This document shows positions 12,560-21,804 of a DNA stretch of 64,000 bases, piece by piece. The stretch's first letter is position 1; the number at the start of each line of letters is the position of its first letter. The stretch lies in NCBI RefSeq assembly GCF_003334335.1, contig NZ_QOWQ01000003.1, one strand, 5' to 3'. A program made the translations under genes and the position numbers. Under the pieces are notes generated by a model. That model was not told the DNA's origin. It searched no databases and saw only the letters and a program-made list of their open reading frames with translations. Source of the DNA: Escherichia coli (GTDB lineage: Bacteria > Pseudomonadota > Gammaproteobacteria > Enterobacterales > Enterobacteriaceae).

Positions 12560-12666
12560 ACGGTTATAAATCAACATATTGATTTATAAGCATGGAAATC
12601 CCCTGAGTGAAACAACGAATTGCTGTGTGTAGTCTTTGCCCATCTCCCACGATGGGCTTTTTTTTA
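12560..12666 (+). ncRNA. rprA: RprA small regulatory RNA (activator of rpoS translation)
   Basis: Sequence ACGGTTATAAATCAACATATTGATTTATAAGCATGGAAATCCCCTGAGTGAAACAACGAATTGCTGTGTGTAGTCTTTGCCCATCTCCCACGATGGGCTTTTTTT matches RprA as I recall it, ending in a hairpin plus T-run terminator; sits between ydiK and ydiL as in K-12. Confidence 0.85.
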
Positions 12667-12802
12667 ACATTTTTCCGCTTCGCTACCTCGCCCCTCACTC
12701 TTTCCAATAATGTTGCACAAGATACTGTGACTCTCTTCAAGCCGTCAGCAGGCTGATAATGTTATTTATATTTTATTGTTTATTTCATGCAGCCATTACA
12801 CG

Positions 12803-13159
12803 ATGAACGCTTATGAACTCCAGGCACTCCGCCATATTTTTGCCATGACTATTGATGAATGCGCGACCTGGATTGCCCAGACCGGTGACAGTGAAAGCTG
12901 GCGTCAGTGGGAAAATGGCAAGTGTGCCATTCCTGATCGTGTAGTCGAGCAACTGTTGGCTATGCGTCAGCAAAGAAAAAAACATCTTCATGCCATCATA
13001 GAGAAAATAAATAACCGCATCGGCAACAACACCATGCGTTTTTTCCCCGACTTAACCGCATTTCAACGAGTCTACCCTGATGGCAATTTTATTGACTGGA
13101 AGATCTATCAATCGGTAGCTGCTGAATTATATGCACACGATCTGGAGCGGCTTTGTTAA
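12803..13159 (+). CDS. ydiL: Small protein YdiL (DUF1870-like, unknown function)
   Basis: ORF track gives 127 aa; start set at internal MNAYELQALRH to give 118 aa. Confidence 0.8.
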   Translation: MNAYELQALRHIFAMTIDECATWIAQTGDSESWRQWENGKCAIPDRVVEQLLAMRQQRKKHLHAIIEKINNRIGNNTMRFFPDLTAFQRVYPDGNFIDWKIYQSVAAELYAHDLERLC

Positions 13160-13258: not shown

Positions 13259-14473
13259 ATGAAAAATCCCTATTTCCCTACCGCACTTGGGTTGTATTTT
13301 AATTACCTGGTGCATGGTATGGGCGTCCTTTTGATGAGCCTGAATATGGCCTCGCTGGAGACACTTTGGCAGACTAATGCCGCGGGTGTCTCGATAGTTA
13401 TCTCATCGCTGGGCATTGGTCGATTAAGTGTCTTGCTTTTTGCAGGATTATTATCCGATCGCTTTGGTCGCCGCCCTTTTATCATGCTCGGGATGTGCTG
13501 CTATATGGCCTTCTTTTTTGGCATCCTGCAGACCAATAACATCATTATCGCTTATGTTTTTGGCTTTCTGGCGGGAATGGCAAACAGTTTTCTCGATGCA
13601 GGCACTTATCCCAGTTTGATGGAAGCTTTTCCACGCTCACCTGGGACAGCCAATATTTTAATTAAAGCATTTGTTTCCAGCGGACAATTTTTATTACCGC
13701 TAATCATTAGCCTGTTAGTGTGGGCTGAACTGTGGTTCGGTTGGTCCTTTATGATTGCTGCAGGCATTATGTTTATTAACGCTCTGTTTTTATACCGTTG
13801 TACGTTCCCACCCCATCCGGGTCGTCGCTTACCTGTCATAAAGAAAACCACCAGCTCTACGGAACATCGCTGTTCAATTATCGATTTAGCCAGTTATACC
13901 TTATATGGCTATATCTCAATGGCAACGTTTTATCTGGTTAGCCAGTGGCTGGCACAGTACGGACAATTTGTTGCAGGCATGTCATACACTATGTCGATCA
14001 AACTACTCAGTATCTACACCGTGGGTTCGCTGCTTTGTGTATTTATTACCGCTCCACTCATTCGTAATACCGTTCGCCCAACAACATTACTGATGCTGTA
14101 CACCTTTATCTCATTTATTGCTCTGTTTACCGTCTGCCTGCATCCCACATTTTATGTGGTGATAATATTTGCTTTTGTCATTGGTTTTACCTCTGCTGGA
14201 GGTGTTGTGCAAATTGGCCTGACGTTAATGGCTGAACGTTTCCCTTACGCTAAAGGTAAAGCTACAGGGATCTATTACAGTGCGGGCAGTATTGCGACCT
14301 TTACTATTCCGTTGATTACGGCTCATCTGTCCCAAAGAAGTATTGCCGATATTATGTGGTTCGATACCGCCATCGCTGCCATCGGTTTTTTACTGGCACT
14401 GTTTATCGGCTTACGCAGCCGCAAAAAAACGCGGCATCACTCGCTAAAGGAAAATGTCGCTCCGGGTGGGTAA
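13259..14473 (+). CDS. ydiM: MFS transporter YdiM
   Basis: 404-aa polytopic membrane ORF with MFS signature (SDRFGRR); paralogous to the adjacent ydiN. Confidence 0.9.
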   Translation: MKNPYFPTALGLYFNYLVHGMGVLLMSLNMASLETLWQTNAAGVSIVISSLGIGRLSVLLFAGLLSDRFGRRPFIMLGMCCYMAFFFGILQTNNIIIAYVFGFLAGMANSFLDAGTYPSLMEAFPRSPGTANILIKAFVSSGQFLLPLIISLLVWAELWFGWSFMIAAGIMFINALFLYRCTFPPHPGRRLPVIKKTTSSTEHRCSIIDLASYTLYGYISMATFYLVSQWLAQYGQFVAGMSYTMSIKLLSIYTVGSLLCVFITAPLIRNTVRPTTLLMLYTFISFIALFTVCLHPTFYVVIIFAFVIGFTSAGGVVQIGLTLMAERFPYAKGKATGIYYSAGSIATFTIPLITAHLSQRSIADIMWFDTAIAAIGFLLALFIGLRSRKKTRHHSLKENVAPGG

Positions 14474-14699
14474 TGCAATATTCTTTTCAGGTCATGCAAG
14501 ATCTTACGGATAAATAACTCTTTCTGCGCTAACTAAGGAAAATCGCGATCAAAAACAAACTATGACATGCAATATTCCTGGAAACATAAACTTTATGCCA
14601 TGTACCCAGGGAAAATCATCTTCAGTATAGTAATTATGTAAACCGTCGGAGAACAATACGTACGGTAACGAAATTATCTTTCAGCAAGGAGCTGTGAAA

Positions 14700-15965
14700 A
14701 TGTCTCAAAATAAGGCTTTCAGCACGCCATTTATCCTGGCTGTTCTTTGTATTTACTTCAGCTACTTCCTGCACGGCATTAGTGTTATTACGCTTGCCCA
14801 AAATATGTCATCTCTGGCGGAAAAGTTTTCCACTGACAACGCGGGCATTGCCTACTTAATTTCCGGTATCGGTTTGGGGCGATTGATCAGTATTTTATTC
14901 TTCGGTGTGATCTCCGATAAGTTTGGTCGTCGGGCGGTGATATTAATGGCAGTAATAATGTATCTGCTATTCTTCTTTGGTATTCCCGCTTGCCCGAATT
15001 TAACTCTCGCCTACGGTCTGGCAGTGTGCGTAGGTATCGCTAACTCAGCGCTGGATACGGGTGGCTACCCCGCGCTCATGGAATGCTTTCCGAAAGCCTC
15101 TGGTTCGGCGGTCATACTGGTTAAAGCGATGGTGTCATTTGGGCAAATGTTCTACCCAATGCTGGTGAGCTATATGTTGCTCAATAATATCTGGTACGGC
15201 TATGGGCTGATTATTCCGGGTATTCTATTTGTACTGATCACGCTGATGCTGTTGAAAAGCAAATTCCCCAGCCAGTTGGTGGACGCCAGCGTAACTAATG
15301 AATTACCGCAAATGAACAGCAAACCGTTAGTCTGGCTGGAAGGTGTTTCATCGGTACTGTTCGGTGTAGCCGCATTCTCGACCTTTTATGTGATTGTGGT
15401 GTGGATGCCCAAATATGCGATGGCTTTTGCTGGTATGTCAGAAGCTGAGGCATTAAAAACCATCTCTTATTACAGTATGGGCTCGTTGGTCTGTGTCTTT
15501 ATTTTTGCCGCACTACTGAAAAAAATGGTCCGGCCCATCTGGGCTAATGTATTTAACTCTGCACTGGCAACAATAACAGCAGCCATTATCTACCTGTACC
15601 CTTCTCCACTGGTGTGCAATGCCGGAGCCTTTGTTATCGGTTTCTCAGCAGCTGGCGGCATTTTACAGCTCGGCGTTTCGGTCATGTCAGAGTTTTTTCC
15701 CAAAAGCAAAGCCAAAGTCACCAGTATTTATATGATGATGGGTGGACTGGCTAACTTTGTTATTCCACTGATTACCGGTTATCTGTCGAACATCGGCCTG
15801 CAATATATCATTGTTCTCGATTTTACTTTCGCGCTGCTGGCCCTGATTACCGCAATTATTGTTTTTATCCGCTATTACCGCGTTTTCATTATTCCTGAAA
15901 ATGATGTGCGGTTTGGCGAGCGTAAATTTTGCACCCGGTTAAACACAATTAAGCATAGAGGTTAA
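14700..15965 (+). CDS. ydiN: MFS transporter YdiN
   Basis: ORF track starts at GTG 14694; the ATG at 14700 (MSQNKAF) with AAGGA ribosome-binding site gives 421 aa; SDKFGRR MFS motif. Confidence 0.9.
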
Positions 15966-15976
15966 AGGAGTTAATT

Positions 15977-16843
15977 ATGGATGTTACCGCAAAATACGAA
16001 TTGATTGGGTTGATGGCCTATCCTATCCGCCACAGTTTATCGCCCGAAATGCAGAATAAAGCCTTAGAAAAAGCGGGATTGCCATTTACCTATATGGCCT
16101 TCGAAGTGGATAACGATAGCTTTCCTGGAGCAATTGAAGGATTAAAAGCCCTCAAAATGCGCGGAACTGGTGTATCGATGCCGAACAAACAACTGGCGTG
16201 TGAATATGTTGATGAATTAACACCAGCTGCCAAACTGGTGGGGGCCATCAACACCATCGTTAATGATGATGGCTATCTGCGTGGCTATAACACCGACGGC
16301 ACGGGCCATATTCGCGCCATTAAAGAGAGCGGTTTTGATATCAAAGGCAAAACGATGGTGCTGTTAGGGGCCGGTGGTGCCTCAACGGCAATTGGCGCGC
16401 AGGGGGCAATTGAAGGTTTAAAAGAAATTAAACTCTTTAACCGTCGGGATGAGTTCTTCGATAAAGCCCTCGCCTTCGCGCAGCGGGTTAATGAAAACAC
16501 CGATTGTGTCGTCACGGTCACCGATCTCGCCGATCAGCAAGCCTTTGCTGAAGCCCTGGCTTCCGCCGACATTTTAACCAATGGCACAAAAGTGGGTATG
16601 AAACCCCTTGAGAATGAATCATTGGTTAATGATATCAGTCTGTTACATCCGGGACTTCTGGTCACTGAATGCGTGTATAACCCGCATATGACGAAGTTAT
16701 TGCAGCAGGCGCAACAAGCTGGTTGCAAAACGATTGATGGATACGGCATGTTGTTGTGGCAAGGGGCTGAACAGTTCACATTATGGACTGGCAAAGATTT
16801 CCCTCTGGAATATGTTAAACAGGTCATGGGGTTCGGTGCCTGA
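15977..16843 (+). CDS. ydiB: Quinate/shikimate 5-dehydrogenase (NAD(P)-dependent)
   Basis: 288-aa ORF with Rossmann GAGGA motif; shikimate dehydrogenase family; immediately upstream of aroD. Confidence 0.93.
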
Positions 16844-16873
16844 CAGGCTGACCGCGTGCAGAAAGGGTAAAAA

Positions 16874-17632
16874 ATGAAAACCGTAACTGTAAAAGATCTC
16901 GTCATTGGTACGGGCGCACCTAAAATCATCGTCTCGCTGATGGCGAAAGATATCGCCAGCGTGAAATCCGAAGCTCTCGCCTATCGTGAAGCGGACTTTG
17001 ATATTCTGGAATGGCGTGTGGACCACTATGCCGACCTCTCCAATGTGGAGTCTGTCATGGCGGCAGCAAAAATTCTCCGTGAGACCATGCCAGAAAAACC
17101 GCTGCTGTTTACCTTCCGCAGTGCCAAAGAAGGCGGCGAGCAGGCGATTTCCACCGAGGCTTATATTGCACTCAATCGTGCAGCCATCGACAGCGGCCTG
17201 GTTGATATGATCGATCTGGAGTTATTTACCGGTGATGATCAGGTTAAAGAAACCGTCGCCTACGCCCACGCGCATGATGTGAAAGTAGTCATGTCCAACC
17301 ATGACTTCCATAAAACGCCGGAAGCCGAAGAAATCATTGCCCGTCTGCGCAAAATGCAATCCTTCGACGCCGATATTCCTAAGATTGCGCTGATGCCGCA
17401 AAGTACCAGCGATGTGCTGACGTTGCTTGCCGCGACCCTGGAGATGCAGGAGCAGTATGCCGATCGTCCAATTATCACGATGTCGATGGCAAAAACTGGC
17501 GTAATTTCTCGTCTGGCTGGTGAAGTATTTGGCTCGGCGGCAACTTTTGGTGCGGTAAAAAAAGCGTCTGCGCCAGGGCAAATCTCGGTAAATGATTTGC
17601 GCACGGTATTAACTATTTTACACCAGGCATAA
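16874..17632 (+). CDS. aroD: 3-dehydroquinate dehydratase, type I
   Basis: 252-aa ORF matching type I DHQase. Confidence 0.95.
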
Positions 17633-17774
17633 GCAATAATATTTCGGCGGGAACACCCTCCCCGCCGAACTAAAAAATATATTCAATCGTATTTAATAAA
17701 AATATTTCGTGAGTCTCTGTGCGCTAATTCTCCATTTGGCGTAGGGAAAATCACATCTGAATCAGGAATTAACA

Positions 17775-21489: not shown

Positions 21490-21804
21490 GACAACCTCCC
21501 TATTCCATGAGCAAGCAAAAACAATATATGCCGGATAAAATACGGCGTGTATTGCGGTTATACAACCGCGTTTAGCGAGAGCTAAACAAGATTATTTACA
21601 CTGAATGCAAGATTGTACGGTCATGGAATAACTATATTGCCGCAAATTGCACTTTTGTTTTAGCGATCGCATTTTTTTTGCAAGATTGTTGGCAAGGAAA
21701 ACAGCTTGCTCCGTCGAAAACCCCGCACCGCTATCGCACACTATTTTCAGGCCATTTTTACCTTCCATCGGAGATGGTTCCGTATGCGACTCACAGGAGA
21801 AATC

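Follow-up and report, generated by a model that had tools for sequence, protein, structure and literature searches.

YdiM and YdiN of Escherichia coli as candidate hydroaromatic acid carriers in a conserved neighbourhood with quinate/shikimate dehydrogenase and dehydroquinase

What do the paired transporters YdiM and YdiN of Escherichia coli carry? Their genes lie in a 64,000-nucleotide stretch of contig NZ_QOWQ01000003.1 (hereafter the window), where positions 13259–17632 hold the E. coli K-12 genes ydiM, ydiN, ydiB and aroD, all four co-oriented on the + strand (Table 1). Both proteins are functional orphans in the best-studied bacterium, encoded beside aroD, the E. coli dehydroquinase gene for aromatic biosynthesis. 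Their substrates would complete the map of enteric uptake or recycling of quinate and shikimate, both abundant plant compounds in the gut, would account for the by-products and the re-uptake in industrial shikimate strains, and would settle a puzzling copper and bo3 oxidase phenotype of ydiM. A sequence-only reading of the stretch had proposed two tandem paralogues of the major facilitator superfamily (MFS) within a locus for hydroaromatic uptake and conversion. The analysis presented here points, with moderate confidence, to YdiM and YdiN as proton-coupled uptake carriers of hydroaromatic acids that feed YdiB and AroD.

According to this proposal, YdiM and YdiN form part of one small MFS subfamily that would import members of the quinate, 3-dehydroquinate, 3-dehydroshikimate and shikimate series together with protons. 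The imported acids would then be oxidized by YdiB, which is dependent on nicotinamide adenine dinucleotide (NAD), converting quinate to dehydroquinate and shikimate to dehydroshikimate, and AroD would interconvert dehydroquinate and dehydroshikimate. The genes ydiN, ydiB and aroD would be transcribed as one operon, with ydiM as an upstream unit split off by a 226-bp spacer that contains conserved operator-like repeats. In most other bacteria the core of dehydrogenase, YdiM-type carrier and dehydroquinase comes with a LysR-type regulator and a C=C reductase, a combination suggestive of plant hydroaromatics being catabolized or used as an electron sink. Neither partner is present in the E. coli locus, which would therefore probably serve salvage or re-uptake into the aromatic pathway, which would account for by-product formation in shikimate producer strains.

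The 5-kb stretch around the genes is 100% identical to MG1655 and was matched in 5426 of 5426 complete E. coli genomes, at a single place with at least 80% query coverage in 5317 of these. Both enzymes passed their curated models, YdiB with 669.9 bits against the quinate/shikimate dehydrogenase equivalog NF009390 (cut-off 349) and AroD with 292.2 bits against the type I dehydroquinase model TIGR01093 (cut-off 139.3). The open reading frames (ORFs) of the two transporters were located in tandem and in the same orientation directly upstream of ydiB and aroD, exactly at the positions given in the sequence-only reading. For ydiN, the ORF listing gives a GTG start at 14694; the annotated ATG at 14700, placed 8 nt after an AAGGAG site, fits better.

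The evidence linking the carriers to hydroaromatic metabolism comes from the gene neighbourhood across bacteria. One genome per species was scanned with a family pattern of 15 sequences, 80 loci were kept, and the neighbouring ORFs were called and clustered, with clusters named using NCBIfam. Outside the close enterobacterial relatives, 43 distant loci were found in Lactobacillaceae, Enterococcus, Paenibacillus, Bacillaceae, Clostridia, Streptococcus and Orbaceae such as Gilliamella, and neighbours were counted within 6 kb of a family member. A dehydrogenase, belonging to the YdiB-related subfamily, was present in 41 of the 43 distant loci and a type I dehydroquinase in 37, giving support to the proposed layout as a hydroaromatic uptake and conversion locus. 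From Firmicutes and Orbaceae to Enterobacterales, this MFS subfamily is found linked to a YdiB-type dehydrogenase and a type I dehydroquinase, and chorismate mutase fusions in some family members also favour the proposal. Further partners in the distant loci were a LysR-type regulator of ~300 aa (37/43), a 678-aa iron–sulphur (Fe-S) flavoenzyme of the FadH/BaiCD/enoate-reductase kind (25/43), a flavocytochrome-c-like flavin adenine dinucleotide (FAD) reductase (14/43) and an ApbE flavin transferase (8/43). The usual order is a divergent LysR gene, reductase, ydiB, carrier and aroD, with Klebsiella aerogenes arranged alike, and the Enterobacterales keep the order ydiL-ydiM-ydiN-ydiB-aroD-ydiF-ydiO-ydiP-ydiQ and onwards. 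A published survey placed ~75% of homologues next to shikimate-pathway genes with no mention of the LysR and reductase partners (PMC10588857); the present survey reproduces and extends that figure.

In the Enterobacterales the regulator gene occupies a defined position. In Yersinia, Brenneria, Serratia, Symbiopectobacterium and Dickeya, ydiM and ydiN stand 1.5–2.0 kb apart, and a divergent LysR gene fills the gap (9289–10191 in L004; also L024–L026, L028–L031 and L033). In Klebsiella (10039–10935 in L003), as in the 37 distant loci that have it, the LysR gene adjoins aroD. The gap measures 220–490 bp in Escherichia, Citrobacter, Kosakonia and Intestinirhabdus, with no LysR gene or remnant. For the E. 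coli spacer, tblastn returned nothing resembling a LysR remnant (best E = 4), and no related LysR gene is present in the window.

The qui and qsu clusters are known systems for hydroaromatic catabolism, with a QuiT/QsuA-type permease and a LysR-type regulator. The distant loci resemble them in combining carrier, dehydrogenase, dehydroquinase and, as counted above, LysR regulator in one locus. They differ in having no dehydroshikimate dehydratase/protocatechuate branch, save for a weak QuiC-like match in Gilliamella, and in having a C=C reductase as the usual partner, whereas E. coli has neither regulator nor reductase.

The reductases of these loci are of two kinds. The gene of the ~678-aa Fe-S flavoenzyme immediately precedes the ydiB homologue in its 25 distant loci (L042, L044, L047, L048, L061, L062, L067–L070, L072, L076 and L078–L082 are examples) and in Klebsiella (5082–7115 in L003). 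The enzyme contains an Old Yellow Enzyme-like flavin mononucleotide domain and a Pyr_redox_2 domain, with BaiCD as its best NCBIfam match (431 bits, below cut-off), and may be an enoate reductase for shikimate or dehydroshikimate. Lactobacilli instead have an FAD enzyme similar to flavocytochrome c and fumarate reductase, of 576 aa in L041 (11994–14744) and ~765–796 aa in the others (L051–L053, L057–L059, L063, L064, L066 and L071), with an ApbE gene beside the enzyme in eight. This pairing next to the ydiB-carrier-aroD core looks like a flavinylated hydroaromatic reductase. In L043, L045, L046 and L049, from Gilliamella and Frischella, a 273-aa gene is located between the ydiB homologue and the carrier, and a short-chain dehydrogenase/reductase (SDR) gene is also present. 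The 273-aa protein is weakly similar to the dehydroshikimate dehydratase QuiC (E = 1e-8, far below cut-off), which together with the SDR enzyme points to a different downstream route in these bee-gut bacteria.

Both E. coli transporters are MFS proteins (Pfam MFS_1; E = 1.2e-22 for YdiM and 4e-29 for YdiN). The AlphaFold2 model of YdiN (predicted local distance difference test score, pLDDT, 93.4; predicted template modelling score, pTM, 0.91) consists of 12 long transmembrane (TM)-type helices and a C-terminal helix, and Foldseek searches with this model returned MFS proteins exclusively, with TM-scores (template modelling scores) of 0.63–0.77. In motif A (G-x-x-x-D-R-x-G-R-R/K, between TM2 and TM3), the residues D73 and R77 were each conserved in 97% of 66 family members. 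The subfamily is small, with 665 of 1.84 billion cluster representatives matching YdiN at E <= 0.001. Its signature blocks ANSxLDxGxYPxLxExFP (TM4), KAxxSxGQ (TM5) and AAGGxxQL (TM10) are present in both E. coli proteins and, with the adjoining YdiB-type dehydrogenase and type I dehydroquinase, place YdiM and YdiN in this subfamily. Conserved polar residues within the membrane helices include Y19 and Y22 (TM1), N115 and D119 (TM4), K142 and S146 (TM5), Y258 (TM8) and Q323 (TM10), a set that would suit a polyhydroxy-carboxylate with proton coupling.

Weak family matches lead towards other solutes, such as chorismate-derived acids, aromatic acids or sugars, in which case the synteny would reflect shared regulation and not shared substrates. 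Both proteins are filed by TCDB under aromatic acid:H+ symporters (2.A.1.15; PMC10588857), and the best NCBIfam matches are to TIGR00895, the aromatic acid:H+ symporter model, for both (39 bits for YdiM and 41.4 for YdiN; cut-off 418.55) and to the TsgA model NF002982 for YdiN (68.4 bits; cut-off 221). Some family members carry a fused C-terminal chorismate mutase domain, which could point to chorismate or prephenate. The scores are far under the cut-offs, the TCDB filing rests on weak similarity, and the most constant neighbours are the two enzymes of quinate, dehydroquinate, dehydroshikimate and shikimate, at the frequencies given above. Transport of such other solutes is considered improbable.

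The two carriers are paralogous, as the sequence-only reading had claimed. The pairwise alignment that it had called for (BLASTP) gave 36% identity and 59% positives over 385 aa with one gap (E = 7e-86), exceeding both chance and the generic MFS level, for which ShiA against either protein gave E = 0.003–0.02 over the motif-A stretch. The shared blocks quoted in support of paralogy are present, with small slips in their wording (YdiM reads GIGRLSVLLFAGLLSDRFGRR), and one of them falls at matching alignment positions in the two proteins; SD.FGRR corresponds to the generic MFS motif A and is unspecific alone. No DNA-level repeat between ydiM and ydiN was found, so the duplication is taken to be old. 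A recent tandem duplication was ruled out by the 36% identity, the absent DNA repeat and the closer relation of YdiM to Firmicute proteins than to YdiN. By sequence, the pair represents two ancient lineages.

YdiM is 45–58% identical to the Firmicute core carrier sited between ydiB and aroD, and the YdiM-type hidden Markov model (HMM) outscored the YdiN-type HMM on core MFS genes by a median of 141 bits. These comparisons mark YdiM as the conserved core type and E. coli orthologue of the Firmicute and Klebsiella core transporter. Orthologues of YdiN at 71–97% identity were found in Enterobacterales only, with the next relatives at 42–46%. A second, divergent family member is encoded at the same locus in 33 of the 43 distant loci, and the recurrence of two different carriers per locus argues for non-redundant roles. 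These second Firmicute carriers are approximately equidistant from YdiM and YdiN (HMM score difference -50 to +22 bits), and for this reason orthology with YdiN is not claimed. A neighbour-joining tree had grouped some of the second carriers with YdiN, on one side of the midpoint root.

Several observations weigh against YdiM and YdiN as hydroaromatic importers. None of the curated NCBIfam transporter models was passed by either protein, and searches of solved structures by sequence and by fold returned only generic MFS proteins (NorA, MdfA, DgoT and the lactate carrier SfMCT), which ruled out a substrate assignment from a solved structure or curated family. The E. coli locus contains no LysR regulator and no C=C reductase, and for that reason may be partly vestigial. 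E. coli is not known to use quinate or shikimate as its only carbon source for growth. BLASTP revealed no significant similarity of YdiM or YdiN to the known shikimate carrier ShiA. The searchable literature contains no direct transport or binding assay for YdiM or YdiN (PMC10588857, PMC8788726), nor any purification of a transporter of this type or demonstration that one binds or moves a substrate (PMC10588857), in line with the remark of the sequence-only reading that the substrates are not established. Johansson and Liden, as summarized in PMC4585142, proposed YdiN as an exporter and not an importer. Finally, deletion of ydiM slowed 64Cu uptake with loss of bo3 oxidase activity (PMC10588857) and caused isoprenol sensitivity (PMC4643228).

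ShiA, a shikimate/dehydroshikimate:H+ symporter, shares with YdiM and YdiN the MFS fold and the proposed substrates and uptake role, and shiA and ydiN have been co-deleted in shikimate producers to stop re-uptake (PMC8788726, PMC10305709). The difference lies in sequence, in genomic setting and in the basis for the assignment. The best BLASTP matches (E = 0.003 and 0.024) extend over 57–80 residues of the motif-A stretch only, homology specific to ShiA was thus rejected, and the ShiA-type model TIGR00883 gave YdiN 22 bits against a cut-off of 443. In addition, shiA lies apart from pathway enzymes, with amn and a glycosyltransferase pseudogene as neighbours, and transport by ShiA has been assayed, whereas the role of YdiM and YdiN is here predicted from sequence.

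The copper phenotype has a reading of its own, in which YdiM imports copper for assembly of the bo3 quinol oxidase in the manner of CcoA/CalT and the shikimate neighbours are incidental or reflect a metal need of the pathway. YdiM shares the MFS fold with those importers, the loss of bo3 activity upon ydiM deletion was seen in a strain without bd oxidases, and the authors cite the motifs M21xxxxM26 in TM1 and M76xxM79xxxM83 in TM3 (PMC10588857). Among 70 YdiM-clade sequences, methionine was found at position 26 in five, at position 79 in 24 and at position 83 in five, and was outside the five commonest residues at position 76; only M21 (59/70) and M30 (57/70) are common. The Klebsiella and Dickeya orthologues are without most of the motif residues. 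With the methionine motifs unconserved, YdiM does not group with the CalT copper importers, and the CalT hallmark MxxxM/HxxxM is present in no E. coli MFS protein according to the source paper itself (PMC10588857). Copper uptake was likewise reduced in the cyoB deletion control (PMC10588857), so the effect of ydiM may be secondary to oxidase loss. As the family is associated throughout with hydroaromatic enzymes and not with copper or oxidase genes, a copper importer is considered very improbable.

The direction of transport is a separate matter. One or both carriers may export or exchange hydroaromatic by-products, such as quinate, dehydroshikimate or reduced products like hydroshikimate, with import and export split between the two. 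The by-product export proposed for YdiN by Johansson and Liden (summarized in PMC4585142) would agree with this, as would the sensitivity to isoprenol raised by ydiM deletion. Non-redundant roles of this kind would also explain the recurrent second carrier, many of the two-carrier loci encode reductases whose product must leave the cell, and the top sequence and structure neighbours include the drug:proton antiporters NorA and MdfA. Likeness to efflux pumps goes no further than the MFS fold, at 13–18% identity, and a module that combines catabolic enzymes with a substrate-responsive type of regulator (LysR) is the usual setting of an uptake carrier. Moreover, extracellular shikimate rises, and does not fall, on deletion of ydiN, with a 1.3-fold higher titre (PMC8788726), consistent with re-uptake. 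Import is favoured because of this setting and the higher titre, and export or exchange is regarded as rather unlikely.

For the proposed uptake locus, the arrangement of the genes suggests two transcription units. The ydiB start codon lies 11 nt past the ydiN stop codon, which the AAGGAG site of ydiB abuts, aroD follows ydiB after 30 nt, and a terminator scan found no terminator-like site at the ydiN-ydiB or ydiB-aroD junction. Given these short junctions, the abutting ribosome-binding site and the absence of an internal terminator-like site, ydiN-ydiB-aroD looks like one operon, with ydiM as a separate upstream unit. The G+C-rich hairpin 3' of aroD (Table 1) is the probable end of this unit; its poor T-run on the + strand keeps termination there at the level of a prediction. 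PMC4585142, summarizing the 2006 work of Johansson and Liden, gives ydiN, ydiB and aroD as co-induced in a carbon-limited shikimate producer. Aromatic auxotrophy was the phenotype of ydiN and ydiB deletions (PMC2672614); taken here as polarity on aroD, it argues for co-transcription of the three genes.

A consensus scan detected no sigma-70-like site on the + strand of the ydiM-ydiN spacer, with overall fewer sites than in shuffled sequence. The spacer does hold three ATGCAAkAT copies, at 14473, 14494 and 14567, with spacings of 21 and 73 bp. The copy proximal to ydiN extends to ATGCAATATTCCTGG, ~132 bp upstream of the ydiN ATG, and the extended block was found in 16 loci. The 64-kb window has six matches to ATGCAANAT, three of them in this spacer, and the spacer blocks are conserved across Escherichia, Citrobacter, Kosakonia and Intestinirhabdus. 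The core TGCAAGATTGT is present twice in the ydiP-ydiQ region, at 21606–21613 and 21679–21686, again 73 bp apart. All 33 of the 33 Enterobacterales loci holding both ydiP and ydiQ have a TGCAA[GT]AT pair between them, where the background is 0.29 per kb. The proximal copy is located ~105–150 bp upstream of the start codon in both the ydiN and the ydiQ promoter. In E. coli and many relatives a second TGCAAkAT copy stands upstream of it at a distance of exactly 73 bp. From this common layout, the ydiN-ydiB-aroD and ydiQ (ydiQRST) operons would appear to answer to one regulator. The AraC-type YdiP, encoded by the adjacent gene, is a guess at its identity. YdiP as a proven binder of the shared operator was rejected: chromatin immunoprecipitation (ChIP)-exo gave weak sites only, the first three at sdhC, uxaB and secG, with no mention of ydiN or ydiQ (PMC8464067 supplement), and ChIP-seq at 15 C highlighted cspE (PMC9283627).

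The shared repeats bear on a broader possibility for the whole ydi region. The cai/fix system (caiTABCDE and fixABCX) comprises a transporter, coenzyme A (CoA) transferase, dehydratase, acyl-CoA dehydrogenase-type reductase and the electron transfer flavoprotein (ETF)/ETF-quinone oxidoreductase (ETF-QO)/ferredoxin set, and reduces crotonobetaine as an electron sink. The ydi region has similar parts, namely the YdiM/YdiN carriers, the dehydratase AroD, the CoA transferase YdiF, the acyl-CoA synthetase FadK, the CaiA-like acyl-CoA dehydrogenase YdiO and the FixABCX-like YdiQRST. By this analogy, the region from ydiL through ydiM-ydiN-ydiB-aroD-ydiF-ydiO-ydiP-ydiQRST to fadK could form one co-regulated system of hydroaromatic uptake and enoate-reducing anaerobic electron disposal. 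YdiM and YdiN would import, YdiB and AroD would turn quinate towards dehydroshikimate or shikimate, YdiF or FadK would form the CoA thioester, and YdiO with YdiQRST would reduce its C=C bond; the Firmicute and Klebsiella core would use the 678-aa Fe-S flavoenzyme or the flavinylated FAD reductase instead. The TGCAAkAT pair would then be the site of the common regulator, possibly YdiP, and in Escherichia, Citrobacter and Kosakonia this mode of control would have taken the place of the ancestral LysR. Reduction of the enoate of shikimate, giving hydroshikimate, has been reported for gut bacteria (bioRxiv 10.1101/2022.12.26.521950); this report, the cai/fix-like parts and the C=C reductases of the Firmicute and Klebsiella loci together make hydroaromatic reduction a possibility for the ydi region.

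Three enterobacterial-like metagenome contigs (L085, L086 and L087) with YdiN relatives 42–60% identical to E. coli YdiN show the association in other settings. Each keeps YdiB and AroD homologues beside the carrier and has acyl-CoA dehydrogenase and ETF genes in the cluster, with the gene order differing among the three; homologues of YdiF, YdiP and FadK are each present in only some of them. L085 (GC 37%) encodes YdiB, AroD, YdiO, the start of YdiQ at the contig end and a YdiP-like AraC regulator (48% identity). L086 (GC 48%) encodes YdiB, AroD, YdiQ, YdiR, YdiS, YdiT, FadK, YdiF and a YdiP-like regulator (43%), with an acyl-CoA dehydrogenase 29% identical to YdiO. L087, named by Pfam only, has a YdiB-type dehydrogenase, dehydroquinase, CoA transferase, acyl-CoA dehydrogenase, ETF subunits and ETF-QO, and no AraC regulator on the contig. 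The YdiP-like regulator genes of L085 and L086 are oriented divergently to ydiB itself. However, YdiO homologues in Desulfovibrio, Moorella and a metagenome contig adjoin other carriers in the absence of dehydrogenase and dehydroquinase, and a universal link of YdiO and ETF to hydroaromatic genes was not found outside Enterobacterales. Furthermore, ydiFO, ydiQRST and fadK are assigned to anaerobic fatty-acid oxidation (PMC3967523), whereas the hydroaromatic link proposed here is by analogy, and an electron sink made up of the whole ydi region is considered unlikely. As a separate observation, the YdiM family has a third carrier in L085 and L086, which is paired there with a second acyl-CoA dehydrogenase.

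What the sequence-only reading describes is already in print, from the paralogues in tandem upstream of ydiB and aroD to the suspected transport of hydroaromatics and the unestablished substrate. YdiN was proposed as a transporter of shikimate or a by-product in 2006 (Johansson and Liden, as summarized in PMC4585142), the paralogy and shikimate-gene neighbourhood were described in 2009 and 2023, and the hydroaromatic transport hypothesis also appears in PMC2672614, PMC8788726, PMC10305709 and PMC10588857. Three leads from the sequence comparisons appear to go beyond these papers: the ancient, recurrent two-carrier layout, the LysR and C=C reductase partners with their absence from the E. coli locus, and the operator architecture common to the promoters of ydiN and ydiQ. 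Taken together, the comparisons suggest that a module for the use of plant hydroaromatics, possibly as electron acceptors, is widespread among bacteria, which would fit the gut reduction of shikimate to hydroshikimate reported in bioRxiv 10.1101/2022.12.26.521950.

Table 1. Positions of the ydi locus genes and associated sequence features in the window
Feature	Position	Strand	Description	Basis
ydiM	13259..14473	+	404-aa MFS transporter	ORF and annotation
ydiN	14700..15965	+	421-aa MFS transporter, counted from the annotated ATG; divergent paralogue	
ydiB	15977..16843	+	quinate/shikimate dehydrogenase	NCBIfam NF009390
aroD	16874..17632	+	type I 3-dehydroquinate dehydratase	NCBIfam TIGR01093
ydiL	12803..13159	+	small helix-turn-helix protein (Aca2_YdiL)	annotation; Pfam family listed for homologues
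ATGCAAkAT direct repeats	14473..14582	+	putative operator; three copies in the ydiM-ydiN spacer	sequence
G+C-rich hairpin	17643..17669		terminator-like, just 3' of aroD; 11 pairs, 7 G-C	
two TGCAAGATTGT copies	21606..21686	+	ydiP-ydiQ divergent promoter region; core and spacing as in the ydiN promoter	

Upstream of the transporters, ydiL keeps its position directly before ydiM in most of the Enterobacterales loci (L004–L040), and a 41% YdiL homologue lies near the hydroaromatic cluster of Frischella (L043); YdiL could be a second regulator of the locus. The small RNA RprA (Rfam RF00034, 118.5 bits) is encoded at 12560–12667 on the + strand, between ydiK and ydiL. Insertions of IS1 or ISVsa5 (insertion sequences) occur in the region in some E. 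coli strains (PC6, SX12 and YZ_2_2), and shortened forms of YdiM are common in the protein collection, at 320–322 aa in E. coli and 380 aa in Salmonella, which together hints at decay of ydiM in some lineages. A pseudogenized copy of the locus, with ydiL followed by fragmented ydiM, ydiN and ydiB, was found in the metagenome contig L089. A shikimate kinase gene adjoins the transporters in L024 (6216–6731), L025, L031, L043, L045, L046 and L049, with the L024 kinase being AroL-like (228 bits, cut-off 161) and placed between ydiL and ydiM, and L085 encodes a 221-aa protein with the SKI Pfam domain at 5570–6235. The adjoining kinase fits imported shikimate feeding biosynthesis in those species.

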